Shown here piece after piece: positions 22,240 through 63,420 of a stretch of DNA of 64,000 bases (position 1 is the stretch's first letter; the number at the start of each line of letters is the position of its first letter). Position numbers and translations under genes: made by a program. The notes beneath the pieces are model-generated. The model saw only the letters and a list, made by a program, of their open reading frames with translations, searched no databases and was not told where the DNA came from. The stretch comes from Nitrospirota bacterium (GTDB lineage Bacteria > Nitrospirota > Thermodesulfovibrionia > UBA6902). The stretch is from the NCBI GenBank assembly GCA_016213935.1, contig JACQZG010000009.1, positions 647 to 64,646 on the forward strand. The letters are read 5' to 3'.

Positions 22240-22315
22240 TGGTGATCCCAACGGGACTCGAACCCGTGTTTCCGGCGTGAGAGGCCAGCGTCCTGGGCCA
22301 CTAGACGATGGGACC
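22240..22315 (-). tRNA. tRNA-Glu (anticodon CTC)
   Basis: The reverse complement reads GGTCCCATCGTCTAGTGGCCCAGGAC...CTCTCAC...GGGTTCGAGTCCCGTTGGGATCACCA. It folds as a cloverleaf with an encoded CCA. The anticodon loop CUCUCAC gives CUC. Confidence 0.8.
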
Positions 22316-22417
22316 AATAAAAACAGCGTTCAGCATTCAGCTATCAGCGAAGAAATCAAAATTTAGTTCTCTGAAATTTTTCAGCAGAAAGCTGATGGCT
22401 GACTGCTGATAGCTGTT

Positions 22418-22491
22418 TGGCTGGGGAGAGAGGATTTGAACCCCTACAAGCAGATCCAGAGTCTGCCGTGCTACCGTTACACTACTCCCCA
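22418..22491 (-). tRNA. tRNA-Gln (anticodon CTG)
   Basis: The reverse complement reads TGGGGAGTAGTGTAACGGTAGCACGGCAGACTCTGGATCTGC...GGTTCAAATCCTCTCTCCCCAGCCA. U1-A72 and a CCCCAGCCA 3' end are typical of tRNA-Gln. The anticodon loop CUCUGGA gives CUG. Confidence 0.75.
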
Positions 22492-32174: not shown

Positions 32175-34043
32175 TCACTGGGTTTTTTTTATGTAATTGC
32201 CTATCGCGGCTGCGACAACGTCCTTTCTCAGGGCTGTAAGGTTATGGTCATTAGGGTACAAGGCGAGGCCTTCATCAAGTACTGATTTCGACTTCTCATA
32301 ATAGATAAGGGAATTTTTTGGGTCGATTTCTCCAAGCCTGTAGTAAATCAATCCTTCGAGATTATACGAAGGAAGCCCCGGCCTCCTTATCTTCTCTTTC
32401 GCATTCCATAGCAGGAAACTATTTATAAAATCCATGTTCTCGGCAGGGTTTAAAGCGGCGTTAAGAGCTTTTCTGAACATATAATCAGGTTCAGCCCAGT
32501 TTTTCAAATAGATATTTTTTGTTGCCGGGAGAATTTGAGTTTCATCGAGGGCCTCCCCATTCATAAAGGCTTCTTTGTACTGTCCGTATTTCCTGTAATC
32601 GATAAATGTTTTTACGGTATAGGATGAGAGCCCCAGATAGAGCACTGAGAAGAATATAAGTATTGCCGCAGTCGCCTTGTTTCCGGTGCGAATTTCTTTT
32701 ACTCTCGTTTCATCGGATGTAACCATAAACAGCAGTATTATAAACAGGAGAAAGTGAGAGGCGGATAATTCCAGAGGGTATTCGACCATCGTATGCATGA
32801 GCACAGGGATAAGCAGCATAGCATATGCAAAAGTATTACTTACGCGGCCTGCTTTATACAGCATCTTGAAGATCCCAAACAGCGCGAAACCTAAGGCAAG
32901 CATTCCTGCTATCCCGCATTCGGCCAAAATATTAAAAAACTCATTATGAGGATGGCTTATGAATTCATTGTAAACCATTCCCTTGTACAGGGGATTTTCG
33001 GAGGAGACTTTTGCTTTTTTGTGCATAAAAACACTGCTGAAATTAGAGTATCCGTAGCCGAATAAGGGTTTATCCTTGAACATTTCATATGAGGTTTCGA
33101 AGAGAATCAGGCGTTCGACATAGGAACGCTGTGTTATGTCGGAAAGCCATTTGACTTTTTCCTTGGCGGTGCTGTCAGCGCTTTCAACCAGCCCTTTTGG
33201 GCCTGTCTTTGTGCCTGACACATAAAATCCGCAAGCTGTGCCGATAAAAAATATCATGATCCATATTGCTATATATTTTTTTGTCCGCAGATATGCAGAA
33301 TGGTTGGAAATCAAGAGCGCCAAAATGGCCAGCGCCAATCCTATAAGCCCAATCCTTGAATTGGCAAGGAACAGCCCTCCCGCAAGCGGCATAGCAGAGA
33401 TTAAAAATAGTGCCTTCTTTGCCTTTCCGAACAGTTTAAACCTTTCGGTTGTAATAAGGTGAACGCTTATCGCTATACCTGTAGCCGCCCATGAAGCAAA
33501 GAGGTTCTTCTGCTGGAAAGCGCCGCCGACATCAGGTATATATTTGGTCACTTTTACCATGGCAAGAGCGAAACTGATGCCAAAAGAATGTATAGCGTAG
33601 GAATTGACCAGAGCTTTCAATATGACCATGGTTGATTCAATAACTGCTGACATGAGTATCACTATAAGAACAGTTACTTTTTCTCTCTCACTGAATCTGA
33701 ACTGGTGAAGGCTTAACCATATTATTACTGCGGCAATCACGCGCAGGGATTGAATTATAAATATTTCCCTATTTAGGATTGGATTAAATACGGCTGTAAT
33801 CAGGAGGAGAGATGTGTAGGCTGCGGCATATTTAAAATACGACGGCACGATTAGTGCTTTTCTGCTTGTAACGAATGCAGCTGCAATAAGGATCAATGTG
33901 AAGATGCCTATCCAGACTATATATTCCCGAGGATGCGCAAGGGTGCCCCCCATATTCGGGATGGCAATATGCATAATAACGAGCAGGATAACGGATAACA
34001 CCGTAATCGGTAAATATTCAAACGCCTTTTGTGATTTTGTCAA
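32175..34043 (-). CDS. O-antigen ligase (Wzy_C) family polytopic membrane protein with C-terminal TPR-like soluble domain
   Basis: ~10 TM helices and HPHNEFFNILAE (conserved His of the WaaL/PglL type). The C-terminal ~200 aa are helical and repeat-like. It is a paralog of the upstream gene. Confidence 0.55.
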   Translation of the reverse strand: MTKSQKAFEYLPITVLSVILLVIMHIAIPNMGGTLAHPREYIVWIGIFTLILIAAAFVTSRKALIVPSYFKYAAAYTSLLLITAVFNPILNREIFIIQSLRVIAAVIIWLSLHQFRFSEREKVTVLIVILMSAVIESTMVILKALVNSYAIHSFGISFALAMVKVTKYIPDVGGAFQQKNLFASWAATGIAISVHLITTERFKLFGKAKKALFLISAMPLAGGLFLANSRIGLIGLALAILALLISNHSAYLRTKKYIAIWIMIFFIGTACGFYVSGTKTGPKGLVESADSTAKEKVKWLSDITQRSYVERLILFETSYEMFKDKPLFGYGYSNFSSVFMHKKAKVSSENPLYKGMVYNEFISHPHNEFFNILAECGIAGMLALGFALFGIFKMLYKAGRVSNTFAYAMLLIPVLMHTMVEYPLELSASHFLLFIILLFMVTSDETRVKEIRTGNKATAAILIFFSVLYLGLSSYTVKTFIDYRKYGQYKEAFMNGEALDETQILPATKNIYLKNWAEPDYMFRKALNAALNPAENMDFINSFLLWNAKEKIRRPGLPSYNLEGLIYYRLGEIDPKNSLIYYEKSKSVLDEGLALYPNDHNLTALRKDVVAAAIGNYIKKTQ

Positions 34044-34044
34044 T

Positions 34045-35805
34045 TTATTTAATTTCCTTTGCGTCGGCAGATTTCATCTCTTGTTTTAACTTAACCATAC
34101 TGCTCCAGCCAGGGTAAAGATCCAGCCCTTCCTCAAGAAGTTTATATCCCTCTTCCCTTCTTCCTACGACAAACAAAGCAAATGACCCTCTTTCGTATAC
34201 ATGCGGATGCGGGAACACTTCTTTCTCCTTAATGAGAAAGTCAGCATAGTCTTCTATTAACTTCTTGTCGCCCCTCATAAAACCGATCCTGTAATTGGCA
34301 TCAAAATAAAATCTCTTTGCAAGCTGTTCAAGGTACATATTGCCGGTTGCTGGTTCAACAAGTTCAGGCCTGACAATTCCTATAATAAGCAAGTCCTGAT
34401 ATTTTTTCATGGCTCTCTGGGCAATGAGGGTTGTTATTGACAGATACGATATAATTACAAAGAGCGTGGCGGCCGCAGTAAACGCGCTTGCCCGTAAGAG
34501 TCCGGCTGGTCTAATCTTAATTTTCTTTACAAAAGATGACGACGGCAGGTAAAGCAGAAAGAGAAAGAGCGCCCAGTGGGGCATGGACTGATAAAGGGAA
34601 TAACTCACTTGTGTATCAAATGCTATCGGGAACAAAAAAGCCGCGTAAGTTCCGCCCTGTTTTCTTCCAAGTTTTATAAGGCATACCGTAAAGGCGGCTC
34701 CAATCAGCATCAGCCCGGCACTGCCCATTAGGCCGGACTCTACCGTCCTGTACAAAAACTCGTTATGCGGATGAGAGGTAAAGGCAGCTTCATAGGGATA
34801 TTCAGGGTGTTCTTTTGCAAGCCTGCTTCGGTAATGCATGAACCTGCTGCCGAAACTGCCGGGTCCGTGGCCGGTCAGCGGCCTGTCTTTTATCATGTTT
34901 ACAGCAGTAATGTACATCGGTACCCTCATGTCCGTAACCTCGTCTCCTGCTACACTCTCCATCGTCATCCCGATCTTTTGTCCTACGGAACTGAGCGCCG
35001 AGTCCCGTTTGTAGTAATACTTCTCAGCCGCCACACTGCCTGCTATTCCAAATACTATCATCAGCAACCATATGGCGAGATAGAGCGCCTTCTCTTTGTA
35101 ACTCCGATACCTTGCCCATAAGAGTATAAGTGTTCCGGCGCCGGCCTCTATAACTCCTGCCCGTGAGCCCGTCAGAAAAATGATAAAGCACATGAGCATA
35201 ACAAAAAGATAAAAAAGAGTTTTAAGCCATCTGCCGAATCCCTTAAAAATATCTCCGGTTAAGAGATAAAGCGATATCGCAATCGTGGTAGCAAGGTATG
35301 ATGCAAGTAGGTTCTGGTGCTGGAAATTGCCAAATATTTTGTTCGGGGCAGGCGCGACTATAAGAAATATGGCAGTATCAGGATTAAAATACTGAAACAG
35401 GCTTATCAGTGCCTCAGTCATGCCGGAGATAACTATCGCGTATAAAAGCCGTTCCTTCTCATCATTTGAAAACTCAAACTGATGGAGGGAAGCAAAAAAT
35501 ATTATCCCGCCGATAAGCCCGGCTGTCTCAAATATGAAGACATGACGGTCTATTATCGGATTAAAAATTGCTGACGAAAGCGATGATAAGAGGAATAGAA
35601 TTATATATAAGGAAATGCGCGGGACTGAGATGTCCCATTGATTGAATATATGTATCACTGAAAGAAGTACAAGTCCTGACAGCGTTATCCAGACAAGATA
35701 TGCCGCAGGCAGTACAAGGGGGGCGCCGAAGTTCCTGATGGTTATGTGAGAAACCGCCAGAAAGAGCAGCGCGAGAACCCATAAATGGATTTTCTTTGTC
35801 ATCAA
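34045..35805 (-). CDS. O-antigen ligase (Wzy_C) family polytopic membrane protein with C-terminal soluble domain
   Basis: LTGSRAGVIEAG and HPHNEFLYRTVESG motifs typical of O-antigen ligase/O-oligosaccharyltransferase proteins, plus ~10 TM helices. Confidence 0.6.
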   Translation of the reverse strand: MMTKKIHLWVLALLFLAVSHITIRNFGAPLVLPAAYLVWITLSGLVLLSVIHIFNQWDISVPRISLYIILFLLSSLSSAIFNPIIDRHVFIFETAGLIGGIIFFASLHQFEFSNDEKERLLYAIVISGMTEALISLFQYFNPDTAIFLIVAPAPNKIFGNFQHQNLLASYLATTIAISLYLLTGDIFKGFGRWLKTLFYLFVMLMCFIIFLTGSRAGVIEAGAGTLILLWARYRSYKEKALYLAIWLLMIVFGIAGSVAAEKYYYKRDSALSSVGQKIGMTMESVAGDEVTDMRVPMYITAVNMIKDRPLTGHGPGSFGSRFMHYRSRLAKEHPEYPYEAAFTSHPHNEFLYRTVESGLMGSAGLMLIGAAFTVCLIKLGRKQGGTYAAFLFPIAFDTQVSYSLYQSMPHWALFLFLLYLPSSSFVKKIKIRPAGLLRASAFTAAATLFVIISYLSITTLIAQRAMKKYQDLLIIGIVRPELVEPATGNMYLEQLAKRFYFDANYRIGFMRGDKKLIEDYADFLIKEKEVFPHPHVYERGSFALFVVGRREEGYKLLEEGLDLYPGWSSMVKLKQEMKSADAKEIK

Positions 35806-36156: not shown

Positions 36157-36303
36157 TTATAAATAGCCGTGAGGATTAATCAAATGAAAGATAAACAAAA
36201 AATAAATACAGGAGGGTTGCCTATGGAACACAAAACCAAATCCATTTTAGATGGAGAATCAACACTATACTTTATTAAAAGTATAACACCAAAAGGAGGA
36301 ATT

Positions 36304-37299
36304 ATGAAAAAAGTACTGTTCACAATGTTCGTAGTACTTGCGGCCGCGTTCATGCTGTATGGAATCGCAGACGCAATCTCCGGCGTGTGCTCCGGATGCC
36401 ACACAATGCACAACAGTCAGGACGGCGCTGCAGTAAACGGTTCAGGCCCCGCAGACATCCTGCTCAAGAGCGACTGTATGGGCTGTCACACCACAGCGTC
36501 AGCAGTTGGACCGAGGGTTGATAATGCGACCTTGCTGTCAGCAGGCTCATTTGCAGATGCCTTTGTAACATCAGACACAAACACCCACAACGTTGAGGAC
36601 CTCGTAGGATTTAATGCCGGCGGCGCTGACGACATTCTTACCTCTAACGATCCACCGGGAGGAAGCGCGGCTGTTTTAACCAAGTTCTCTGGTGCTAACC
36701 AGTTGAAGTGCGCCGGTAGTAACGGCTGTCACGGTAGCCATGATAGTAAAGCTACAAGCTGGGCAGGCATACAGGGTTATCACCATGCAGGCGGGTCAAT
36801 CTATAAGTTCCTTGAGGTTGCTACTGACAACGAAGGCGCAGGCACCGCTGTTGCAGGCACAAAAGATTCAACCTACGAATCAGGCGGAGCAACCGCATCC
36901 AAACATAATATTTACGTGTCCGACGCGGCAACAGGCATCAGCGCATTCTGCAATAACTGCCATGATGTCTTCCACGGCGCGGCGACCACTGACCTGACCA
37001 CCAACGGCCTTTGGAACCGCCACCCGACCGATATATCAATTGCTACTTACCTTGGGGCTTCGGGTGTAACAGTTGATTATGTGAATAACCCGTTTGCATT
37101 CACAGCGGCATACGCAACCACATTAAGCACAACCTCGGCAACAGGTTATGACGCAACTAATGGTTATGTAATGTGTCTGTCTTGCCATCGCGCACACGCG
37201 TCTGAGTACGCAGACCTGCTCAGGTTTAACTATGCTTCACAGAGCGCAGGCGGCGGCGGTACAACAGGATGTCTCGGATGTCACGTGAATCAGAGGTAA
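36304..37299 (+). CDS. OmcS-like hexaheme c-type cytochrome (nanowire-type), paralog 1
   Basis: Strong RBS (AAAGGAGGAATT-ATG) and a signal peptide (MKKVLFTMFVVLAAAFMLYGIADA). The mature N-terminus [17 protein letters not shown] matches the OmcS CEGCHTMHNS start. C-terminal MCLSCHRAHASEYADLLRFNY matches OmcS NCLSCHRAHASGFDSMTRFN. Heme sites: CSGCH, CMGCH, C-x5-CH (CAGSNGCH), CNNCH, CLSCH, CLGCH. Confidence 0.75.
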   Translation: MKKVLFTMFVVLAAAFMLYGIADAISGVCSGCHTMHNSQDGAAVNGSGPADILLKSDCMGCHTTASAVGPRVDNATLLSAGSFADAFVTSDTNTHNVEDLVGFNAGGADDILTSNDPPGGSAAVLTKFSGANQLKCAGSNGCHGSHDSKATSWAGIQGYHHAGGSIYKFLEVATDNEGAGTAVAGTKDSTYESGGATASKHNIYVSDAATGISAFCNNCHDVFHGAATTDLTTNGLWNRHPTDISIATYLGASGVTVDYVNNPFAFTAAYATTLSTTSATGYDATNGYVMCLSCHRAHASEYADLLRFNYASQSAGGGGTTGCLGCHVNQR

Positions 37300-37308
37300 T
37301 TTAATCCG

Positions 37309-37373
37309 CAAGGGGAACCCGTTGGGGTTCCCCTTGCATCTGAGTGGTTAAGCAACTCTTAACCACTCAGATG
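37309..37373 (+). other. Two consecutive perfect stem-loops between OmcS-like paralogs (terminator/attenuator or RNA processing element)
   Basis: CAAGGGGAACC-cgt-GGTTCCCCTTG, immediately followed by CATCTGAGTGGTTAAG-caact-CTTAACCACTCAGATG (16 bp stem). No clear U-tract follows. Confidence 0.5.
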
Positions 37374-37397
37374 CAAGATACGAAAGCAAGGCATATT

Positions 37398-38609
37398 ATG
37401 ATTAAAATAATCATAAAAGAAATGGCAAGAATAAATAATACCAATAGGTATGTTTTAATATTTATTGCAGCCTTGGCTTTAGTTGCTTCTTCAGTAAATG
37501 CAAATATTACAGGCGTATGTTCAAACTGCCATACAATGCATAATAGTCAGGACGGAGCAGCTGTTGTTGGGTCAGGCCCAAACGATGTTCTTTTAACTTC
37601 AGATTGTCTTGGTTGTCACGGCCAGGGCGGCAGCCAGAAGATAATCAGTATCGGGGGAAGTGAGATTCCCCAAGTATTGCATTCTGACGGCACAGGCGAC
37701 CTTGCAGGAGGAAACTTTAATTATATCGGCACACTCGGCGACAATAGAGGCCATAACATCGTTGATCTCGTTAATGGAGATGATGTGTTAGATATACCGC
37801 CCGGGGCTGAATATGGCGAGCATGCCAATCCCGCAAAGATGGTCACTGATTCCGTGCTTACATGCGCAGGCTCTAACGGTTGCCACGGGTTTAGGGCGAT
37901 TGGAGGGAGTTCGAATCTTCAGGCATTAAAAGGGGCGCACCATAAGAATATTACAACTGATTCCACAAGCGGATTTGATGACGATTACAACAGCTATAGA
38001 TTTCTCAGGAAAGTGAAGGGGCATGAGAATGACGGGCAGGTAAATTCCTCAACAAAATGGCAGAATGCCGATGCCAATAACCATAATGAATATTTCGGCG
38101 CTACGTCTCCTCTTGAGTTTGACGCAAACTGCGCAAAGTGCCATTCAAATGCGCCGTCAGCCAACATTGTTCCCCCGCAAAATACTATGAGCGGCTTCTG
38201 CGGCACATGCCATATGAATTTTCATCTCTTAACAGGAACAGAAACCTCTGATATGGGCATAGGAGATTCAACTGTATCTCCATTCAGGAGGCACCCGACT
38301 GATGTTGTGTTGCCTGGGGCAGGTACAGAATATAATAACTATACATCGTACAGTGTGGAGGCTCCTGTAGCGAGGGGCGTGGTTCCTGACAGTATGAGCA
38401 ATGTCGTAACACCCGATAACAGCGGCGTACAGGGTGCGATTGTAATGTGCCTTTCCTGCCATAAGGCGCACGCATCTCAATATCCCGATATGCTGAGGTG
38501 GGATTATGACGGTATGGTTGTCGGCACAACCGGGGCTTCAGCCTTTTTTTCCATTGTCGATAGAAACCGCAGGTATTTATTGCATCTCAGCTTATTTATT
38601 GAAGAATAA
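37398..38609 (+). CDS. OmcS-like hexaheme c-type cytochrome, paralog 2
   Basis: Signal peptide ([27 protein letters not shown]). [26 protein letters not shown]-x5-CH (CAGSNGCH), [14 protein letters not shown] and [23 protein letters not shown]. The start is ambiguous (ATG at 37398 or 37422). Confidence 0.7.
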
Positions 38610-43534: not shown

Positions 43535-44164
43535 ATGCGCAATAATGAAGCTTTAAATAAAAATATCAATGGGTTATATTATTCTATGTTTAATTCGGCA
43601 ATCAGGCATGGTTCATTGATTTTTCGTTTTTCGTTTTTATTATTTTTTGTAACATACGGGTGCAGCGTTATGAGCGCGTATGTAAGGCCCGGATTTGATA
43701 AAGCTTCAGTGAAAAAAATAGCGGTTCTTCCTTTTGAAAATTATACCGAAGATAAATTTGCAGGCCAGAAGATGAGGGCTAAGGTTATGATCGAGCTTCT
43801 TAATTCCGGATTCGAGGTTGTGGAAGAGGGGGAGGTTACAAGGATATTGAAGGAGTTAAAAGTGTATCAGGTCGCATCAATAACCGTTTCAGACATTCAG
43901 GAACTTGGCAAGAGGCTCGGCATTGACGCGGTGGTTAAAGGTTCAACAGGGGAGATGGAAGATAAGAAAGGCGTAGCCTTAACATATCCTGAAGTATCCA
44001 TTAATTTAAGCATACTCGATGCAAAATCCGGAGATATTGTCTGGTCCGTGTCGCATAGTGCCGGCGGTCCGAGTTTCTGGACAAGGCATTTTGGAACAGA
44101 GGGGGATACCCTGGATAAGGCCGCTTATAAAGTTGTAAAAGAGTCTATTAATACATTAAAATAA
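43535..44164 (+). CDS. Small lipoprotein, paralog family member 1 (hypothetical)
   Basis: Lipobox (FVTYGC). KIAVLPFENYT ... GIDAVVKGS; similar to the next two genes. An alternative start is the ATG at 43586. Confidence 0.5.
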   Translation: MRNNEALNKNINGLYYSMFNSAIRHGSLIFRFSFLLFFVTYGCSVMSAYVRPGFDKASVKKIAVLPFENYTEDKFAGQKMRAKVMIELLNSGFEVVEEGEVTRILKELKVYQVASITVSDIQELGKRLGIDAVVKGSTGEMEDKKGVALTYPEVSINLSILDAKSGDIVWSVSHSAGGPSFWTRHFGTEGDTLDKAAYKVVKESINTLK

Positions 44165-50906: not shown

Positions 50907-51926
50907 ATGAAGTTACCGCTCTATAACATAATTTTTTTTTGCGGTTTGATGTTTGTTCTTTATTTGTCCGAGTGCAGCGCTGATATGTCGGGTAAATTCT
51001 GCAGCGATTGTCATACAATGCATAACAGCCAAGCTTCTGAGGTTATGACATTTGATGACAGTTTGACGCCTTACAAGGCATTGCTACGTGGCTCTTGCGA
51101 CGGCTGTCACTCATCTTCCTCTAATTCCGTGTGGATTGACTCGGTTGCCGGGGCCCCTATCGTATATAATACTGTTGAACCTTCATATGCGAACAATGGA
51201 CTTGCCGGCGGCAATTTTTATTACACAAGTACAACCGATGATGATAAAGGCCATAATATTTTTTTGTTAAATCCTGATGATATATTAGGCAATACTCCGC
51301 CTGGAGGGAATAGTCTCGATCAGCAACTCAATTGTTCAGGAACTTACGGTTGTCACGGGCATAACGGCAGGCAGGTCGGAGATGTCGCAATTGAGGATCA
51401 ATTGAGTGCGATTATGGGCGGGCATCACGGGATTAATTCCCCTATGGACGGCAGTGTCACTGAGGTATCAAAAAGTTATCGTTATCTGCTTGGCATAAAG
51501 GGTATGGAGGATTCTGATTGGGAACATGACAATACTGCCACAAGCCATAATGATTCAAGCTCAACCGATTCTATAAGTTTTTTTTGCGCTTAATGCCATG
51601 GTAATTTCCATACATGGACAGGGGGCGAGTCTGAAGTGGGAAGCGCTTCTCCCTGGCTTAGGCATCCGACCGATATGGTTTTGCCGGCTTCCGGGGAATA
51701 CAATTCATATACAAACTATGACCTTTTGGCGCCAGTCGCTCGGGCAGATCCCGATTCTGTTGCCGACACTACGCGTGCTTATCCTGGAACCGACATTGTT
51801 ATGTGTCTTTCATGTCATCGGGCGCACGCCTCTCCTTATTACAAAATGCTCAGGTGGGATTATAAAAGCACAGTTTTATCAACTGCATTATCCGGATGCA
51901 ATGTTTGTCATACGTCAAAAAATTAA
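50907..51926 (+). pseudogene. OmcS-like hexaheme cytochrome paralog 3, interrupted by an in-frame TAA (51591-51593) inside a CXXCH motif
   Basis: Signal peptide, [17 protein letters not shown] and C-x5-CH (CSGTYGCH). At the fourth site the paralogs read CxxCH but this copy reads FFCA-TAA-CHGNFH. The same frame then continues (WLRHPTDMVLP ... CLSCHRAHASPYYKMLRWDY ... CNVCH) to 51926. Confidence 0.6.
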
Positions 51927-51949
51927 CAGGCTTGGTTTATTGTCATAAT

Positions 51950-53230
51950 ATGAAACAGATGCTAAGATTCTTTATTGGTACGATAATAATATATTTTCTT
52001 TTTATTGACACCCAGCCTGCGAACAGCGGGGCATACCTTCAATCTTCACATGGAGATTCAACTTATGGCGTTAAGCGAAACGCTTCAGGCTTTCCTTCAG
52101 GTTATCCGAAAGGACTCTGTGCCCATTGTCATGAACAGCATGCTAATATAGATGGCTCTGAACCTGCTCCATCCGACGGAGGACCTTCTTTGTTTGAGCT
52201 TTTCTCAGATAATCATATTGCACAGACTGAGAATTTTTGTTATCAATGTCATAAAGAATCAGGGTCTTACCAGTCAGGAGGGATGGTCAATAGGAGTTAT
52301 AGCTACAGGGCAGGTGGTTGGACTGCTGACAGCGTGAATGATATACTTGAGTCATTTAATTATGGTTCTCCAGACTCCTCGCATTATCTCGATGATATTG
52401 TAACTTTTATTTCCGGTAAATGGGGTTATACTGCTAATTCCAATCCCTGTACTGCCTGCCATAATCCTCATTCTGCGCAGGGTGATCCGCCTAATATGCC
52501 GAATGGGCCTAAAAATACTTCAACAACTCGAGGCTGGCCTGTTTCAAGGCCGAGCTTGCACAGTAAGGATAATAATACTTGGGGGCTATGGGGCGATGTA
52601 TCCGGCGAAAGGATGAGCATTTTTACATATCAGGCGCCTTACAGGTTTAACTCTTCAACCAATTACGAACCTGATGGCTCGACAACTGTATATGACGGTT
52701 CTAATCTTACTGATTTTGTGTCATTTTGCACAGACTGCCATAATGATTCCAACACAATATACAGCACCCCACTTTTTAGAGATAGTAATAAGTTTAACTG
52801 GAATACTGAACAGCATGGAGGGGGCGTTGCAAGTTATGGATGCTCTGATATTTTGCCGCCATATCAAGAAGCGCAATGCGGGTCATATGTGCTTTCATGC
52901 ACAGACTGCCATGAACCTCACGGCTCTCCAAACATCTTTTTGATACGGAAAGAAGTAAATGGAGACGAAGTTACGGTAGATGCCGGTAATGCTCCAGGGC
53001 CTGATGAGAGGGAAAATACAGAATGGATATTTCTTTGCAGCAGATGTCATGATGGATTAAGCATTCCTGACGGCAGGCATACCCATCCGTTTTTTGTTCC
53101 GCCGCAGGTTTCCGGCTGTTCTTCATTGCAATGTCATGAGGCTGGGGATTATTACAGGGTGTGTACCGAATGCCATAATCATGGCAATCAGGATATCGAC
53201 GGAACGCCGTTTGGCGAGCCTTTATTATAA
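51950..53230 (+). CDS. Octaheme c-type cytochrome (secreted)
   Basis: Signal peptide (MKQMLRFFIGTIIIYFLFI). Motifs CAHCH, CYQCH, CTACH, CTDCH, CTDCH, CSRCH, CSSLQCH (CX4CH) and CTECH. Confidence 0.7.
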   Translation: MKQMLRFFIGTIIIYFLFIDTQPANSGAYLQSSHGDSTYGVKRNASGFPSGYPKGLCAHCHEQHANIDGSEPAPSDGGPSLFELFSDNHIAQTENFCYQCHKESGSYQSGGMVNRSYSYRAGGWTADSVNDILESFNYGSPDSSHYLDDIVTFISGKWGYTANSNPCTACHNPHSAQGDPPNMPNGPKNTSTTRGWPVSRPSLHSKDNNTWGLWGDVSGERMSIFTYQAPYRFNSSTNYEPDGSTTVYDGSNLTDFVSFCTDCHNDSNTIYSTPLFRDSNKFNWNTEQHGGGVASYGCSDILPPYQEAQCGSYVLSCTDCHEPHGSPNIFLIRKEVNGDEVTVDAGNAPGPDERENTEWIFLCSRCHDGLSIPDGRHTHPFFVPPQVSGCSSLQCHEAGDYYRVCTECHNHGNQDIDGTPFGEPLL

Positions 53231-54165: not shown

Positions 54166-55068
54166 ATGGATTTATTTTGGCTTAGCATAATGAATATTAT
54201 ATTTCTTCCCTTAATAGGGTTGATAATGGGAACAGCATTTGCCAACGAAATTCCGAAAGAAACTAATATTCACTTCGCAGGTAAATATTGTGAAGAGTGT
54301 CATTCTCAAACGCCGGAAAAAGGCAAAGATAAATACTTGAAATATGGAAACGATTATGGTCGAACTTGCCGGTGCCATGAATATACCCCAGGGACATACA
54401 TTCACCCGGTTTTTATAAAACTTTCTGATGAGAAAAAGTCCAAGATACCCGATAATTTTCCTTTGGACAACGGAGAAATAACATGTCTGACATGTCATGA
54501 TATATATCTTCAGTGTCAGGACAGAGTTGTTTTAAAACTTTTCAACAGGCTTTTTCTAAGGGGAGGTCCTTACTTGCAGAGGACAGACATATGCTTTAAT
54601 TGTCATAATCGAAGCGAATATGCCAAACTTAATCCGCACAATCAGCTTGATGAGTATGGGAATATAATAGGCGAAAAATGCCTCTATTGTCATACGGAAA
54701 AGCCCGATGAGAAGCTGGATGCATATAAGGAAACATCTTCCGGCCATCAAGTCAAGCTTATTGGAAACTTTGATGCATTGTGTCTCAGATGTCATCCTGA
54801 AAAAGGAAGATTTCATCCGATAAACGCTGATCATCTTAGGAGACCTTCTGCGGTAACTTTGTCCAATATTAAAGAGGCGGAAAAGAAATACAATGTTATT
54901 CTCCCATTAAATGACAAGGGCGAAATCACATGCGCAACTTGTCATAATCCTCATGAAAAGGGCGTGTTGCCTCGCAAAAAGGCCTCTGCCTCAGGTGCAA
55001 GTGAGAAATACAGGCTTCGATTATCCGGCATGACTGGTGAGATATGCAGGGCATGCCATAAAAAATAA
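54166..55068 (+). CDS. Heptaheme (possibly octaheme) c-type cytochrome, secreted
   Basis: Signal peptide. Motifs CEECH, CLTCH, CFNCH, CLYCH, CLRCH, CATCH, CRACH, plus an atypical CRCH (C-x-CH) at 54367-54378. Confidence 0.7.
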   Translation: MDLFWLSIMNIIFLPLIGLIMGTAFANEIPKETNIHFAGKYCEECHSQTPEKGKDKYLKYGNDYGRTCRCHEYTPGTYIHPVFIKLSDEKKSKIPDNFPLDNGEITCLTCHDIYLQCQDRVVLKLFNRLFLRGGPYLQRTDICFNCHNRSEYAKLNPHNQLDEYGNIIGEKCLYCHTEKPDEKLDAYKETSSGHQVKLIGNFDALCLRCHPEKGRFHPINADHLRRPSAVTLSNIKEAEKKYNVILPLNDKGEITCATCHNPHEKGVLPRKKASASGASEKYRLRLSGMTGEICRACHKK

Positions 55069-55084
55069 TATAGGGGGTGGAAAT

Positions 55085-56161
55085 TTGAAGCATATTAATC
55101 ATGTGAGAATCACGTTATATTTCAGTCTCCTCTTCTTTGTTGCGGTGGCAGCATTTGCAACATCTGCTTATGCAGCAGACAAAGAAAACTGTTTAATGTG
55201 CCATAAGTATCGTTTTCTCGGCAGAATCGATGAACACGGTAAAAAAAGAAATTATAATGTTGATGAAAATATTTTCAACAATACGGTTCATCGAAATGTA
55301 CCGTGCAGGGATTGCCACACTCAAATCGCCAACCTCCCGCACGATCCGATAACGGAGGAAGTTAACTGCGGAAATGAATGTCATATTAAGCCGCCCTTCT
55401 CGACTGAAAATTTCTCGCATAAAAAAATAATCCAGATTTACAACAAAAGTGTTCACGGCATAAAAGCAGATGACCCCGAGGATTTGAAGGCGGCAAAGCC
55501 ATATTGTAAATACTGCCATTTAAACCCTATTTTTACGAAAGTGGAGGAAGAAAGGGTAGCAAGTTCAACACTACGGAGATGCTTGAACTGCCATGAAGAG
55601 AAAGGGGTTTCCCAGGCTTATAAGCATATAACGCACCGTCTCCGGCATAAAACATCTCGTTCAAGGCAGGAGATTGTCAAGCTATGTTCGTATAATTGTC
55701 ATGAGAATACCGCATTAATGGCAAGATTTAATGTTTCCCAAGAGAGCCTTGAGTCTGTCGAAACCTATAAGCGATCTATACATGGAAAGGCTGTTGCGTT
55801 AGGTTCTGAGGAGACAGCTGACTGTGTGAGCTGCCACGCGACCAGCAGTATACATGATGTTTACAAGAAGGATGAGATGATGTCAACAGTAAATGAAAGA
55901 AACCTCAAAAGGACGTGTGAGCAGTGCCACAGGGATGTTAGTGATGAGTTTATAAAAATAGATGTTCATTCCGGGATTACCCATGATGAAAAGCCGTTCC
56001 TGCATTTTCTCGAAGTTATGCTTGGTTTTGTTCTGTACGGAACAATATTCAGCTTATTGGGCCTTGCCGTTCTTGAGACGATTGGAAGAAAGAAGGATGG
56101 GATCAAGTGGCAGATTAGAGAGGGCACTACCTGGCGCGGAATATCAAAAAGAGGATTTTAG
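55085..56161 (+). CDS. Octaheme c-type cytochrome with C-terminal TM anchor (Cbc-type quinol oxidoreductase c subunit), module A
   Basis: TTG/GTG start after an AGGGGGTGG RBS and a signal peptide. Motifs CLMCH, CRDCH, CGNECH (CX3CH), CKYCH, CLNCH, CSYNCH (CX3CH), CVSCH, CEQCH. C-terminal hydrophobic helix (FLEVMLGFVLYGTIFSLLGLAVL). Confidence 0.7.
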   Translation: MKHINHVRITLYFSLLFFVAVAAFATSAYAADKENCLMCHKYRFLGRIDEHGKKRNYNVDENIFNNTVHRNVPCRDCHTQIANLPHDPITEEVNCGNECHIKPPFSTENFSHKKIIQIYNKSVHGIKADDPEDLKAAKPYCKYCHLNPIFTKVEEERVASSTLRRCLNCHEEKGVSQAYKHITHRLRHKTSRSRQEIVKLCSYNCHENTALMARFNVSQESLESVETYKRSIHGKAVALGSEETADCVSCHATSSIHDVYKKDEMMSTVNERNLKRTCEQCHRDVSDEFIKIDVHSGITHDEKPFLHFLEVMLGFVLYGTIFSLLGLAVLETIGRKKDGIKWQIREGTTWRGISKRGF

Positions 56162-56186
56162 ATTATAAATCTTACATGGAGGTAAC

Positions 56187-57077
56187 ATGGCAACTTCGTC
56201 TGAAACATTAGTAACCACTGCCGGGAATGCACAGGCGGACAGCGATTATATGCATTATGTCGAGGGAGTCGGTCATGTCCCGAGGGATATTTACAAACAT
56301 GTGCTTTCAGACCCTCTCGGTGACTTGCCTCGGTATTCGATTCATATCGTCATCCAGCACTTTCTTATTTTTATAACATTCATCACTCTCGCGGCTACCG
56401 GCCTCCCTCTTCATTTCGGTGACCTGTTCTGGGCGCCGATAATTCTGGCTCCATTAGGCGGCCCTGATTCCGCACGAATTATACACAGGATTTCTGCAGG
56501 GATAATGATAGTGGCTGCTCTCTATCATTTCATCACTATCGCAATCGGGACTTACAGTAAGCTTAAAAAGCACAAATTTAACCTGTTACATAGTCAGATT
56601 CCGACATTGAAGGATTTAAATGACATTAAGCATGATATCAGGTATTTTCTTGGCAAGGAGCAGTACCGCCCCAAGATGGGCAAGTTCATGTATAAACAGA
56701 AGCTGCATTACCTGGCCATAATATGGGGTACATTTGTAATGATAGTTGCAGGGTCAACGCTTTTGTTTCCTGAGGCCATGGCTAAGTTTTGGCCAAATCC
56801 TGAATTTGCCCAGGATCTCGCAAGGCTTATGCACGCGGATGAGGCAATTATGGCTTCAGCTGTGGTTGTATTTTGGCATTGGTCCAATGTGCACTTGGTG
56901 CCCGGCAGATTTCCGCTTCAGTGGACTTTTTTGACAGGCAGAATCACTCGCGAACATCAGATAGAAGAGCATTTTCTTGAATATATCGATAAGCTAAAAG
57001 ATGACCCGAAAGAAAAGGAATATTTAATAAGCGTATTGAAAGAAAAAGGATACAAAACAGAAGGGGGTGAGGTTTAA
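56187..57077 (+). CDS. Membrane di-heme cytochrome b (FdnI/HydC-like, Ni/Fe-hydrogenase b-type cytochrome family), module A
   Basis: Four or five TM helices with conserved His residues (IHIVIQHFLIF, RIIHRISAGIMIVAALYHF, VVFWHWSNVH). Confidence 0.7.
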   Translation: MATSSETLVTTAGNAQADSDYMHYVEGVGHVPRDIYKHVLSDPLGDLPRYSIHIVIQHFLIFITFITLAATGLPLHFGDLFWAPIILAPLGGPDSARIIHRISAGIMIVAALYHFITIAIGTYSKLKKHKFNLLHSQIPTLKDLNDIKHDIRYFLGKEQYRPKMGKFMYKQKLHYLAIIWGTFVMIVAGSTLLFPEAMAKFWPNPEFAQDLARLMHADEAIMASAVVVFWHWSNVHLVPGRFPLQWTFLTGRITREHQIEEHFLEYIDKLKDDPKEKEYLISVLKEKGYKTEGGEV

Positions 57078-57911
57078 TTGTCCGGGAGACCTAAAAGGCT
57101 TAATCATCCAAAAAGTGTTTATGTTGTGGGTTTAGTTTTTAAAATTATAACCCTTACGGTTATCATTGCGGTTTTATATCATCTGACCTTGTCGCATCAT
57201 GGCCCAAACCTTCTGACTCCTTTAAAAACAAAGATCGAGGAAAAGCAGAAGTCGGAAATTATGGAAGAAGTACAACATCTTGAAGAACTCGAAGTCCACA
57301 GGCATTTTCATAATATAGCCCCATTTCCGGAGATGCCTGAAAACCTGAGGCCGGTCTGTTTTATATGCCATTCAGATTACCCTCACAGCAAGAGTAAAAA
57401 GGTCAGGGCGATGTTAAATATGCACACCCAATTTTTCACATGTGAGGCGTGCCATTTAGAAGAAGACCCCGGTCTTAAGGTTGTTTTCAACTGGTATAAT
57501 CCACAGGATGAAAATCCTAAAGGGCCTTTTTTCGGCACGGATTATGACTCTGAAACAGGCAATCTCATAACTGTCACGGATAAATTATCAAAGATATCAG
57601 TTTTTTATAAAAAAGGTGATAAATTAGAATCTACGATTCAGATGCAGGATGCCCCGATCGCGATCGATTACATGAAAATCAGGGATAAACTTACTCCTGA
57701 CCAGCGCGATAATGTCAAAAAGAAATTTCATGTAAGGATCAAACCCAAGGGTCATGAATGCAAAAAATGCCACGACAGAAACAGTATTCTTGATTTTAGG
57801 AAACTCAGCTTTTCAGACAACAGAAGGGTTGACCTTGAGCAATTGAATATCACAGGTATGATTACGAAGTATGAAATGTTTTACCTGCCTAACCTTTTTC
57901 AGGGTGAGTAA
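57078..57911 (+). CDS. TM-anchored triheme c-type cytochrome, module A
   Basis: N-terminal TM helix (VVGLVFKIITLTVIIAVLY), then CFICH, CEACH and CKKCH. It starts 1 nt after the upstream stop. Confidence 0.65.
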   Translation: MSGRPKRLNHPKSVYVVGLVFKIITLTVIIAVLYHLTLSHHGPNLLTPLKTKIEEKQKSEIMEEVQHLEELEVHRHFHNIAPFPEMPENLRPVCFICHSDYPHSKSKKVRAMLNMHTQFFTCEACHLEEDPGLKVVFNWYNPQDENPKGPFFGTDYDSETGNLITVTDKLSKISVFYKKGDKLESTIQMQDAPIAIDYMKIRDKLTPDQRDNVKKKFHVRIKPKGHECKKCHDRNSILDFRKLSFSDNRRVDLEQLNITGMITKYEMFYLPNLFQGE

Positions 57912-59039: not shown

Positions 59040-61289
59040 ATGCGTTATCTACGCTGTTTAAACGGGTTAGTAATATTTTTTTTTGTTTTTGTTCTGGTTG
59101 CTCCCGATTCATTTGCTCTTGTTGAATCTGCAAGAAGAGATTGTGTCCTTTGCCATATAATGTGGATGGATGATTTCAGGGAGAATAAGGAAACTCTGAT
59201 CGAATGGCAGCCGTCGAATGCACTTAAGAAAGACACACAGGGCGTGGAAAGCTCTGAGGATATATGCTACAGTTGCCATGACGGCTACGTAAGAGATTCA
59301 AGAAACATAACATGGAAATATAACAGACATCCTGTCTTTGTAAAACCTTCCGGCAAGGTTATAGTACCTGATTCTTTTCCCCTGAGCGTCAAGAATGAAA
59401 TTTACTGCGGCACATGTCATTCAGCTCACGGCAAAGGCGCGGCTGCCACGGAAGAACACGCTAAGACATCGCTTTTCAGGGAAGTAAACGTTAATTCCAG
59501 CCTTTGCGAGATGTGCCACCTGGACCAGGCAAATTTCAGAGCATCCAACGGCCATCCAGTTCATTCAAGGGCTATCAAGCTTCCTGATAAACTTTTTGAG
59601 AACGGAGCTGTTTCTGCTTCTGACAAAAATACCGTTATTTGTCAGTCCTGTCATAAAATTCACGGCGCAAAAGGGCAGAAACTTCTTATTGTGGACAATC
59701 AGAACTCTGAATTATGCATAATTTGTCATCAGGAAAAAGAGAGTATATCGGGAACGAAACATGACCTCAGCATCACCCTTCCTGATGTCAAGAACATAAA
59801 GGATAAGTCATTGTCTGAATCCGGCCCGTGCGGGGCATGCCATCTTCCCCATAATGCTGTCGGCAAAAGATTGTGGGCTCGCACAATGGGGAAGGGCAAT
59901 CCGGCTGCACAGATGTGCCTTACATGCCATGACCAGTCTTCCGGCTATAAAATTAAAGGAGTTGGCGAGTTTTCTCATCCTATAGACATAAAACCGGCAT
60001 CAGGAACGCACATTCCTCCGGAATTGCCTCTTTTTTCCTCTGAGGGAGCAAAGACGAAGGATGGGAATGTGCAGTGCTTCACTTGCCATGATATACACAG
60101 ATGGGATCCACAGACTCCTATTAATAAAGGCGGGAAGGACGTGGAAGGCGACTCATCAAACAGTTTTTTAAGAATAAGCAACAGCAGTGGCTCAGGCCTT
60201 TGCATTTTATGCCACGTTGATAAAAAGCAACTGGTTTATTCAGACCATAATCTCGAAGTCACTGCTCCGGAGGAGAAGAATATTCAGGGCGTAAATACCC
60301 GGTCTTCCGGCCCCTGCGGCGCTTGTCATCTTCCGCATAATGCATCTTCATATCGTCTGTGGGCAAGGAATCTTCCCAAAGAAAATATTGCGGGTGAATT
60401 ATGTATCTCGTGCCATAAGAATGAAGGCCCGGCAAAGGATAAACAGTTAGGGAATTATTTTCATCCTGTTAACGTATCTCTCGAAAAATTCAAGATCAGC
60501 ACGGCGCTCCCCTTATTTGATGAAAAAGGAAACAAGACCCAGGACGGAAAGCTTGTATGCATGACATGTCATGACCCCCATGTGTGGAACCCTGACAGTT
60601 CATTATTTATTGAAGAGTATAAATACGCCAATGTCGAGGGAGACGCCACAAACAGCTTTTTACGAAAGCATAATTCGCCTACTTCGGATCTTTGCGAAGC
60701 ATGTCATTTCAAACAGGCTTTTGTTGATGGAACCGATCATGACTTAAATGTTACCGCACCTGATGCAAAAAATCTCCTTGGCCAGACAGTCAAAGAGTCA
60801 GGACAATGCGGGGCCTGCCACCTCGTTCATAACAGCCCTAACAGTTTAAGGTTATGGGCAAGGCCGTATCTGCCGTACATAGAAAAATCGGGTATCATTG
60901 AATCTCTATGCAACAGCTGTCATTCAAAAAATAATATCGCAGGTAATAAGATCCCGGTAATTGCCACGCATCCTGGCGACAAACTGGTTAATAATATAAT
61001 GAGATGTGACCGCGATGACATTGATTACGCCCCATTGTTTGACGTGAAAAGCGGGAACTTTACCAATTACGGCAATATTTCGTGCCCAACATGCCACAAT
61101 GCGCATCAGTGGAGCCCTTTATCAAAGATAAAAGGCATAGGCCAAAACGTGGAGGGCAATGCAACAAATAGTTTTTTAAGGAATGTCAGCTATAGAAACA
61201 TATGTATAGATTGCCACGGTTTTGACGCACTTTTCAGATATAAGTATTTTCATGACCTTGAAGACAGAATTCCTCAAAGGACCCGCTGA
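59040..61289 (+). CDS. 18-heme c-type cytochrome with three internal ~150 aa repeats
   Basis: Signal peptide and 18 CXXCH motifs counted. The block SGPCGACHLPHNA..RLWAR...C(L/I)(T/S)CH occurs three times, and the block ...NSFLR...C..CH...DH(D/N)L(E/N)VTAP(E/D)(E/A)KN also recurs. Confidence 0.8.
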   Translation: MRYLRCLNGLVIFFFVFVLVAPDSFALVESARRDCVLCHIMWMDDFRENKETLIEWQPSNALKKDTQGVESSEDICYSCHDGYVRDSRNITWKYNRHPVFVKPSGKVIVPDSFPLSVKNEIYCGTCHSAHGKGAAATEEHAKTSLFREVNVNSSLCEMCHLDQANFRASNGHPVHSRAIKLPDKLFENGAVSASDKNTVICQSCHKIHGAKGQKLLIVDNQNSELCIICHQEKESISGTKHDLSITLPDVKNIKDKSLSESGPCGACHLPHNAVGKRLWARTMGKGNPAAQMCLTCHDQSSGYKIKGVGEFSHPIDIKPASGTHIPPELPLFSSEGAKTKDGNVQCFTCHDIHRWDPQTPINKGGKDVEGDSSNSFLRISNSSGSGLCILCHVDKKQLVYSDHNLEVTAPEEKNIQGVNTRSSGPCGACHLPHNASSYRLWARNLPKENIAGELCISCHKNEGPAKDKQLGNYFHPVNVSLEKFKISTALPLFDEKGNKTQDGKLVCMTCHDPHVWNPDSSLFIEEYKYANVEGDATNSFLRKHNSPTSDLCEACHFKQAFVDGTDHDLNVTAPDAKNLLGQTVKESGQCGACHLVHNSPNSLRLWARPYLPYIEKSGIIESLCNSCHSKNNIAGNKIPVIATHPGDKLVNNIMRCDRDDIDYAPLFDVKSGNFTNYGNISCPTCHNAHQWSPLSKIKGIGQNVEGNATNSFLRNVSYRNICIDCHGFDALFRYKYFHDLEDRIPQRTR

Positions 61290-61529
61290 AAATCGTAACA
61301 GTTTTGCCTGCCATGCTTAATCATTATGCAATATTTATAAGGTAATTAATTTTTCAATATCAGGTGTATTACCGATATATCAGGCAAGTCATTTTTTTAT
61401 TACAAAATGGCTAATGCATTATCACATAAGAAAAAATAGCGCCATATTTATAACCGCTGAATTCTATCAGCATAATCATATAATAATTTATTATTTCACA
61501 TTAAGTAAGGTTTGTTGTAAAAAAATTAT

Positions 61530-62582
61530 ATGAGCCTAAAAAGAGCTGCAAGGCTTTATATTGTTGGATTTATTTTTATAGTATTGAATTTCTATCCTTC
61601 CAAGAATCTTTTTTCTGCAGATGTCGGCAACTGTCTCTTGTGCCACAAATATCCTGGCTTAAGCAGGATTGACGAGCAAGGCAAAATGAAACTTCTCTAT
61701 GTTAATGAAGATATTTTCAATATCAGCGTTCACTTAAAAGTTAAATGTGAGGGCTGTCATACTGATATAAAAAAGATTCCCCATGACCCTGTGAATAAAG
61801 TAGACTGCCTGGTTGAATGCCATATTGTTGAACCTTCAAGCGAACAGAAATTCTCTCATAAGGATGTTGATAATTATGTTAAAAAGAGTGTTCATGCCGC
61901 GTTAGACAAGTATGGGATGCCGAAGAAATTCAAAGAGGATCTGCCTACCTGCAAAAATTGCCATGACGAGCCGCTATACAGGCCTCTCTCTTTCTTTAAG
62001 CAGGTGCGTCCAGGTATTTCTGAAGCTGCACTCGGCAGGTGCAGGGTATGTCACAAGAAAGAGGATTTTATTATAAGATTTTATAATCATGTTACCACAA
62101 GATTGCACCGCACCAGAAATCCAATCAATATTGCAGAGGTTTGCGCTAGGTGTCATGATGATCCGTTGTTGGTTGAAAGGCATAATCTGGGCACAAGGGC
62201 GGTTTTTTCATACGGAGAGACCTTTCACGGGAAAGCGGCACGCTTTCTTGATGAAAGAGTGCCGGACTGTCTTGATTGCCATGTTAATACAGGCGAATCT
62301 GTCCATCAAATGCTGAGTCATAAAGATTCTGCCGCGATAACCTATCGGGAAAACAAATATCTGGCATGTTCTAACATTGAATGCCATCCCGGCACGTCGC
62401 AGCAATTCGCCAGTTATAAAGTTCACGCGGAATTTAATCTGGACCAAAGCCCGGTGCAATATTATTTCACCCTCTTTTTCATAATTCTCACAGGGGGCAC
62501 GCTCCTGCCGTTGATGGCGATCATATTTTTGGACTTGATAAGAAGGTTATTCCCGGACGCCGTGATACCAAGGAGAAGATGA
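61530..62582 (+). CDS. Octaheme c-type cytochrome with C-terminal TM anchor, module B (paralog of 55085-56161)
   Basis: Signal peptide. Motifs CLLCHKYPGLSRIDEQGK (paralog: CLMCHKYRFLGRIDEHGK), CEGCH, CLVECH (CX3CH), CKNCH, CRVCH, CARCH, CLDCH, CSNIECH (CX4CH). C-terminal TM helix. Confidence 0.7.
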   Translation: MSLKRAARLYIVGFIFIVLNFYPSKNLFSADVGNCLLCHKYPGLSRIDEQGKMKLLYVNEDIFNISVHLKVKCEGCHTDIKKIPHDPVNKVDCLVECHIVEPSSEQKFSHKDVDNYVKKSVHAALDKYGMPKKFKEDLPTCKNCHDEPLYRPLSFFKQVRPGISEAALGRCRVCHKKEDFIIRFYNHVTTRLHRTRNPINIAEVCARCHDDPLLVERHNLGTRAVFSYGETFHGKAARFLDERVPDCLDCHVNTGESVHQMLSHKDSAAITYRENKYLACSNIECHPGTSQQFASYKVHAEFNLDQSPVQYYFTLFFIILTGGTLLPLMAIIFLDLIRRLFPDAVIPRRR

Positions 62583-62586
62583 AGAC

Positions 62587-63420
62587 ATGGAAAAGTATCC
62601 TCTTATAAAAACGATAAACGGGCGCAGGTATTTTTATAGGTTTTCATTGAATCAGAGGGTGCAGCACATAATACTTGCCTTATCAGTAATTATACTCGTG
62701 TTAACCGGAATGCCCCTGAAGTTTCATAATGCTGGCTGGGCTCCTTATCTGTATAAAATATTCGGAGGGATAAAAGCCGCTCCCATTGTGCATAAAGCGG
62801 CAGGCAGCATCCTTCTTATCCTCTTTGCTTATCATATAATTTATCTCGTTTATGTAATTTATAAATATCAAATAGTCCCTTTGAGAGATAAGGAACGGCG
62901 TCTCACTTCGGGCATGATCTTGAAGTTACTCGCGACTCAGCCGCTGGTTCCGAATATGAAAGATGCGAGAGACATAAGGGATCTCATGACATATCTTCTT
63001 TATTTTACAAATAAAAGGCCTGACGGCGATGCTTTTACATGGAAGGAAAAGTTTGATTACTGGGCGCCTTTCTGGGGTATGGTAGTAATTGGGCTGTCAG
63101 GCCTTATAATGTGGAATAAAGTGCTTGCGACAAAGATCGTACCAGGCATTGTCATTAATTTCTCTTTGATTGCTCACAGCGATGAGGCACTTCTTGCGGC
63201 GCTTTTTTTATTCATATGGCATTGGTATAATGTTCATTTTTCAATTTCGGTTTTTCCAATGGGGATGGTCTTTATAACGGGTTATTTGCCCGAAGAGCTG
63301 ATGATTGAGGAACATTATGAATATTATGTCAAAATCATGAAGCAGGCCGGGCTGGACAATGAAATACGCCCTCCGCACGGAGCACATTCAGAACTTTCTA
63401 CAGACGAGGCAGAGAAATAA
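62587..63420 (+). CDS. Membrane di-heme cytochrome b, module B (paralog of 56187-57077)
   Basis: TM helices with His ligands (RVQHIILALSVIIL, IVHKAAGSILLILFAYHIIY, LFIWHWYNVH). Confidence 0.7.
   Translation: MEKYPLIKTINGRRYFYRFSLNQRVQHIILALSVIILVLTGMPLKFHNAGWAPYLYKIFGGIKAAPIVHKAAGSILLILFAYHIIYLVYVIYKYQIVPLRDKERRLTSGMILKLLATQPLVPNMKDARDIRDLMTYLLYFTNKRPDGDAFTWKEKFDYWAPFWGMVVIGLSGLIMWNKVLATKIVPGIVINFSLIAHSDEALLAALFLFIWHWYNVHFSISVFPMGMVFITGYLPEELMIEEHYEYYVKIMKQAGLDNEIRPPHGAHSELSTDEAEK

Follow-up and report, generated by a model that had tools for sequence, protein, structure and literature searches.

Organization of the locus

The window analyzed here is a 64,000-nt stretch of DNA from a metagenome-assembled, groundwater-type Nitrospirota genome. 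Between 36169 and 63420, it carries a very large gene cluster of the extracellular-electron-transfer type, in which three OmcS-like genes are found, called paralogs 1, 2, and 3 below. Paralog 3 contains an in-frame TAA within its fourth heme-binding motif, and paralogs 1 and 2 were used as comparators. The features referred to in the text are given here in window coordinates.

36169-37299, forward strand: paralog 1, intact; its heme motifs are five of the CXXCH type and one of the CX5CH type; comparator
37344-38609, forward strand: paralog 2, in which the terminal GCFxCH motif is missing and an unrelated tail is found instead; comparator
50907-51593, forward strand: N-terminal fragment of paralog 3, 228 codons plus the premature TAA, from the ORF list and its translation
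51552-51557, forward strand: junction (51554/51555) of a 15-nt in-frame deletion relative to the orthologs
51578-51585, forward strand: T8 homopolymer just 5′ of the paralog 3 stop, from the codon alignment
51591-51593, forward strand: premature TAA, in frame and followed by T (tetranucleotide TAAT), in the codon for the second X of the fourth CXXCH motif
51594-51929, forward strand: C-terminal remainder of paralog 3, with 111 codons closed by the normal stop (TAA, 51927-51929)
51636-51929, forward strand: GTG-started ORF of 96 aa, in frame with paralog 3 and without a signal peptide
51896-53230, forward strand: downstream multiheme cytochrome gene, intact, overlapping the normal 3′ end of paralog 3

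The remainder of the cluster is also rich in cytochromes. Its multiheme cytochromes have 26, 16, 7, 7, 6, and 18 CXXCH motifs. The cluster further encodes a SurA/PpiC-like rotamase, a lone response regulator, and cytochrome-b-like membrane proteins, as well as NHL/YncE-like beta-propellers and small lipoprotein-like proteins that come in pairs. Another member is a protein of 746 aa, for whose orthologs no Pfam hit was obtained. The block at 55037-57911 seems to have been duplicated, with a trio of genes at 59040-63420 as the diverged copy. Gene order in the cluster is kept in two related loci, L081 and L082, which are described below, and the overlap between the downstream cytochrome gene and the end of paralog 3 is also conserved in L081. 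With its beta-propellers, its large protein, and its small lipoprotein-like proteins, the cluster of paralog 3 resembles those described around the nanowire cytochrome OmcE (bioRxiv 10.1101/2025.10.22.684050).

The reverse strand at 32175-35805, immediately before paralog 1, encodes two large membrane proteins of 622 and 586 aa, both polytopic. In one case, the syntenic ortholog carries Wzy_C / PglL_A domains, which are O-antigen ligase or O-oligosaccharyltransferase-like. As direct neighbors of the OmcS-like genes, they may hint that the secreted cytochromes are glycosylated.

Reading frame of paralog 3

A sequence-only reading of the window had placed an in-frame TAA inside a CXXCH motif of the third OmcS-like paralog. 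We re-read this site and found FFCA-TAA-CHGNFH as described, with the stop at 51591-51593. The codons are TGC (51585-51587), GCT (51588-51590), TAA (51591-51593), TGC (51594-51596), and CAT (51597-51599), which gives C-A-stop-C-H within the local protein reading SISFFCA-stop-CHGNFHTW. With the TAA site written as X, the motif-4 region in the joined reading is SFFCA-X-CHGNFHTWTGGESEVGSASPWLR. At the aligned site, paralog 1 has FCNNCHDVFHG, and the reading given earlier for paralog 2 also matches. The frame had been said to stay open for about 110 more codons; the exact number is 111, up to the TAA at 51927-51929. From base composition alone, the chance of an open frame of 111 codons is ~0.0013.

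The N-terminal fragment has a signal-peptide-like N-terminus followed by the heme motifs CSDCH, CDGCH, and CSGTYGCH, the last of which is a CX5CH motif. The part after the stop contains the CH of motif 4, the string SPWLRHPTD, the heme 5 motif within CLSCHRAHAS, and a final CNVCH for heme 6. That CLSCHRAHAS lies in the same frame after the stop had likewise been noted from the letters, correctly. All of the Cys and His residues of the six motifs are retained in paralog 3.

The T8 homopolymer next to the stop is partly due to a Tyr-to-Phe change (TAT to TTT), as seen in the codon alignment. The frame is continuous across this run, so the run is not the cause of the stop. A frameshift at the T8 run was therefore ruled out, as the frame is unbroken on either side.

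Family assignment and comparison with OmcS

For homology searches, we masked the stop and used the joined 339-residue reading as the query. It matches 2,791 proteins, the best of which are 341–345 aa long and 65–71% identical. These best matches cover 91–100% of the query and therefore span both sides of the stop. The N-terminal fragment aligns with residues 1–230 of intact orthologs. At the level of sequence comparison, this full-length homology on both sides of the stop, with E values down to 3e-165, is the decisive evidence that we are dealing with a single gene.

The nearest loci belong to Nitrospiraceae, Thermodesulfovibrionia, and Thermodesulfobacteriota MAGs. Curated libraries returned generic multiheme signatures only, namely Paired_CXXCH_1, with cytochrome c7 below threshold. 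The true family of paralog 3 is an uncharacterized "cytochrome c3 family / predicted CXXCH cytochrome" group of Nitrospirota and Thermodesulfobacteriota MAGs (PF09699, Paired_CXXCH_1). Its motif set consists of five CXXCH motifs and one CX5CH motif, and it is the fourth motif that is split by the TAA in paralog 3. The CX5CH motif is the third in order and reads CSGTYGCH in paralog 3 (51333-51356) and CAGSNGCH in the other two paralogs. The pattern C-x-G-x-x-G-C-H is shared by all of 106 homologs, and this spacing, unusual for a c-type heme site, is conserved across thousands of proteins.

We then compared the family with proteins of known structure. A phmmer search against PDB sequences returned two hits. 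One is 6ef8_A (OmcS), with an E value of 3.4e-5 over query residues 31–332 and chain residues 8–361, and the other is a local match to a nitrite reductase with an E value of 0.056. We also modeled the closest intact ortholog (P0001) with AlphaFold2 from a 106-sequence alignment; the model, which lacks hemes, has a mean pLDDT of 69.8 and a pTM of 0.70. A Foldseek search of this model against the PDB gave 6ef8_A as the sole match, with an E value of 2.5e-4 and a probability of 1.00. The TM scores are 0.45/0.39 with an R.M.S.D. of 10.5, so the match is specific but weak. We therefore regard "OmcS-like" as a fair label for what appears to be a distant homolog, weakly but specifically supported by the sequence and model searches.

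The family is similar in size to OmcS, the hexaheme nanowire cytochrome of Geobacter sulfurreducens (6ef8/6nef), and would agree with it in having six heme-binding motifs in the same order if the CX5CH site, and the split fourth motif of paralog 3, are counted. The OmcS motif WCANCH aligns with the interrupted motif of paralog 3, and the string CLSCHRAHAS is common to both proteins and aligned between them. However, paralog 3 is only ~21% identical to OmcS, and the third motif is CX5CH (C-x-G-x-x-G-C-H) in this family, whereas it is CXXCH in OmcS. The hosts also differ, a Nitrospirota MAG here and Geobacter for OmcS, and the filament here is putative. Finally, unlike OmcS, the paralog 3 copy is broken by a stop.

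Intact orthologs and the ancestral codon

Two loci share the gene order of the window over ~15 genes: L081 (GCA_003358065.1, PJEL010000140.1) and L082 (Logan SRR13727526). In the slot of paralog 3, each has a single uninterrupted gene, of 343 aa in L081 and 341 aa in L082. Compared with these intact syntenic orthologs, paralog 3 has a premature in-frame stop. We searched the L081 and L082 proteins against the window using tblastn. All 14 neighboring genes align end to end in single segments, and the ortholog of the cytochrome itself aligns as a single segment straight over the stop. Because the 14 neighboring genes align cleanly, the assembly is not generally error-prone.

The codon alignment shows Glu at the site of the stop, encoded by GAA in L081 and by GAG in L082 and a further locus, L083. 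Starting from GAA, one G-to-T transversion suffices to give TAA. We compared 87 family genes, drawn from 84 loci, at this site: 33 encode E, 14 T, 13 Q, 12 G, and 10 R, and the rest encode other amino acids. A stop at this position occurs in none of the 87 family genes examined, and the fourth motif is uninterrupted in all of them. Family members shorter than ~300 aa in the database are all C-terminal fragments that contain motif 4. We also considered a natural short isoform, which was ruled out, as no family member in the database ends at motif 4.

We searched for a second copy of the same population using DNA patterns with NNN in place of the stop, and none was found in the genome or metagenome contig collections. 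Exact-protein searches with the 228-aa fragment, the downstream 444-aa protein, the response regulator, and P0126 likewise gave no comparison contig for the codon.

TAA as a stop codon in the window

Among the 56 credible ORFs of the window, 22 end in TGA, 21 in TAA (paralog 3 included), and 13 in TAG. TAA thus ends 20 other credible genes and is an ordinary stop here, as the sequence-only reading had held. The commonest terminator tetranucleotide in the window is TAAT, the same as at the premature stop, and UAAU is the most efficient termination context in Escherichia coli. Furthermore, the TAA stops at 44164, 53230, 55068, 57077, and 57911 coincide exactly with the last residue of the respective ortholog. 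Within the window, TAA therefore acts as a true terminator.

The only tRNA genes in the window are an adjacent pair, tRNA-Glu(CTC) and tRNA-Gln(CTG), at 22240-22491 on the reverse strand, and the tRNA scan found no suppressor tRNA within the 64,000 nt. Recoding of TAA was rejected on the stop-codon usage, the coincidence of TAA with ortholog ends, and the tRNA scan of the window. To our knowledge, there is no bacterial system that recodes UAA. We also looked for a stimulatory RNA structure 3′ of the stop and found none. The fold is no better than that of shuffled sequences (z = -1.28), and a readthrough-stimulating structure was rejected on this basis.

Sequence conservation and a second lesion in paralog 3

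The part of paralog 3 after the stop is 78–80% identical to its orthologs, with a pN of 0.14–0.15 and a pS of 0.75–0.89. This pS is saturated, which ruled out a dN/dS test against the window, and we used pN comparisons only. Between intact orthologs at a comparable distance, pN is 0.11, slightly below the value for the post-stop part. Upstream of the stop, pN is 0.17–0.22, above that of the downstream part. These comparisons indicate that purifying selection acted on the downstream third over essentially its entire history. Such conservation implies that the stop is recent, is not real, or is bypassed, and the closeness of the downstream pN to the intact-pair value indicates that the break is recent.

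Paralog 3 has one other lesion. Relative to its orthologs, a 15-nt in-frame deletion located 37 nt 5′ of the stop changes HNEYQGST to HND-----S, with the loss of a Tyr and a Gly that are both invariant in 106 homologs. The other hit on a column conserved at ≥95% is a single conservative change of Phe to Tyr. In total, 3 of the 89 columns at this level of conservation are violated, with a maximum of 5 in the family. No decay beyond the stop and the 15-nt deletion was found in paralog 3.

Lesions in paralog 2

The three paralogs are only 38–41% identical at the protein level. In paralog 2, the terminal GCFxCH motif, kept by all 11 of 11 complete homologs, is absent (38520-38609). A DNA alignment with its syntenic ortholog (L084) indicates a 12-nt deletion that removes Gly-Ser-Gly-Cys; one nucleotide also seems to be missing from the second Cys codon, beside a T7 run. 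The ORF then ends in an unrelated tail of 21 residues. Paralog 2 is thus the second OmcS-like paralog of the window with a damaged heme site. The lesions in paralogs 2 and 3 suggest real erosion of the OmcS-like gene family in this lineage.

Annotation in the public record

In the public record, the 96-aa C-terminal piece of paralog 3 is listed as a hypothetical protein in its own right (HY809_02740, MBI4843227.1). Paralog 2 corresponds, with 100% identity, to MBI4843216.1 (HY809_02685, "MAG: Nitrospirae bacterium"), which is encoded on a contig of 142,670 bp. A search of the protein collection for an annotated N-terminal fragment, allowing alternative start positions, found none. From the consecutive accession and locus-tag numbering, we infer that an N-terminal CDS is annotated in the record as well. 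Paralog 3 should be flagged as a single disrupted OmcS-like cytochrome gene rather than as separate hypothetical proteins.

DISCUSSION

We consider it likely, at a probability of roughly 0.8, that paralog 3 is a young pseudogene or loss-of-function allele that arose by a recent nonsense mutation. This reading is favored because the joined reading is full-length, the orthologs are intact, and the ancestral codon is a single step away. The sequence-only reading had listed a recent nonsense pseudogene among three explanations, with no choice between them. That part is the best supported, given the GAA and GAG codons of the intact orthologs, the signature of purifying selection after the stop, and the 15-nt lesion; its gloss of a "phase-off switch" is not supported, as discussed below.

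The course of events would be as follows. Paralog 3 is the ortholog of a conserved, secreted, OmcS-like hexaheme c-type cytochrome. In this genome, its GAA codon for Glu, which specifies the second X of heme motif 4, would have become TAA by a G-to-T transversion. In the efficient TAAT context, translation would end at 51591-51593 and give a secreted fragment of 228 residues with three heme motifs. This fragment would lack the second Cys and the His of heme 4, both later heme motifs, and several conserved histidines of the C-terminal third (RHPTD, HRAH), for which a role as axial ligands is putative. It would presumably be unable to fold or assemble as a six-heme unit. For the C-terminal part, the only available start would be the GTG at 51636, inside the gene; the product would have no signal peptide and would be expected to remain in the cytoplasm, away from heme attachment. 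Attachment of c-type heme takes place in a periplasmic maturation pathway, not in the cytoplasm. Loss of the protein is probably tolerated owing to the two paralogs and the many other cytochromes of the cluster. Given the 3′ overlap with the downstream cytochrome gene, the early stop could also lower expression of that gene by polarity.

In several respects, paralog 3 looks like a typical bacterial pseudogene with a single nonsense mutation: the stop is premature and in frame, the ancestral codon is one step off, and the genetic code is standard. It differs in that there is no measurable relaxed constraint apart from one in-frame deletion. The lack of relaxed constraint so far means that the stop is very young, polymorphic, or not real. 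This brings us to the only serious rival, which is that the TAA is a consensus, assembly, or sequencing artifact and that the gene of the organism is intact, with GAA at this codon. Low coverage, an oxidative G-to-T library artifact, or an automated contig-polishing error are possible causes, and G-to-T is a typical class of oxidative-damage artifact. The T at 51591 comes from one assembly of a single MAG contig, and a consensus can carry a minority allele. In addition, paralog 3 is otherwise fully conserved, with every motif Cys and His kept and a low downstream pN, and its 3 violated columns of 89 fit an intact gene with one wrong base equally well. However, the 14 neighboring genes are free of frameshifts and stops, which indicates a low error rate, and real nonsense alleles are far more common than substitution errors in a consensus of short reads. 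The 15-nt deletion in paralog 3 and the two lesions in paralog 2 also go beyond what one miscalled base can account for. A chimeric assembly between the paralogs was ruled out, as they are too divergent at 38–41% protein identity. We infer that the T is real in the DNA of the organism, and regard an artifact as unlikely, though it deserves to be taken seriously.

If the base is real, the truncation might still be something other than simple loss. On/off variation typically affects filament proteins exposed at the surface, lesions at heme motifs occur in two of the three OmcS-like paralogs, and a T8 tract lies 6 nt 5′ of the stop, all of which would suit a regulated or adaptive "off" state kept in the population, i.e., a phase-variation-like switch of a nanowire subunit. 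Against this, the stop arose by substitution of a base, with no change in repeat length, and the frame continues over the T8 tract, so slippage neither made the stop nor can undo it. No inverted repeats or invertase were seen at the site, and the other lesions are deletions, which are irreversible. We therefore find the switch proposed in the sequence-only reading very improbable. Programmed readthrough or local recoding of the TAA, which would still yield the full-length hexaheme cytochrome at useful levels, had been proposed there too. It is in keeping with the intact frame, with the conserved downstream part, and with the position of the stop at a freely variable X of CXXCH, where any inserted amino acid would be tolerable. 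However, 20 other genes of the window end in TAA, the most frequent terminator tetranucleotide is TAAT, the window has no suppressor tRNA, and the RNA fold is unremarkable (z = -1.28). A stop is found in 0 of the 87 family genes, syntenic orthologs included, so there is no conserved recoding signal, and we consider readthrough barely credible. Taken as one proposition, functional readthrough or population-maintained, adaptive on/off loss-of-function alleles of electron-transfer filament subunits would be a highly surprising outcome. In the second case, the lesions at heme motifs in two of the three paralogs could reflect adaptive on/off variation of filaments for extracellular electron transfer in a groundwater Nitrospirota.

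Returning to the recent nonsense allele, its significance is mostly one of annotation and extends little beyond. Combined with the damage at the end of paralog 2, it suggests a possible ongoing loss of some nanowire-type cytochromes from this lineage, which would bear on the extracellular electron-transfer capacity inferred from MAG gene counts. The family to which paralog 3 belongs, with thousands of OmcS-like hexaheme proteins and an invariant CX5CH motif, is more interesting than the stop codon itself.
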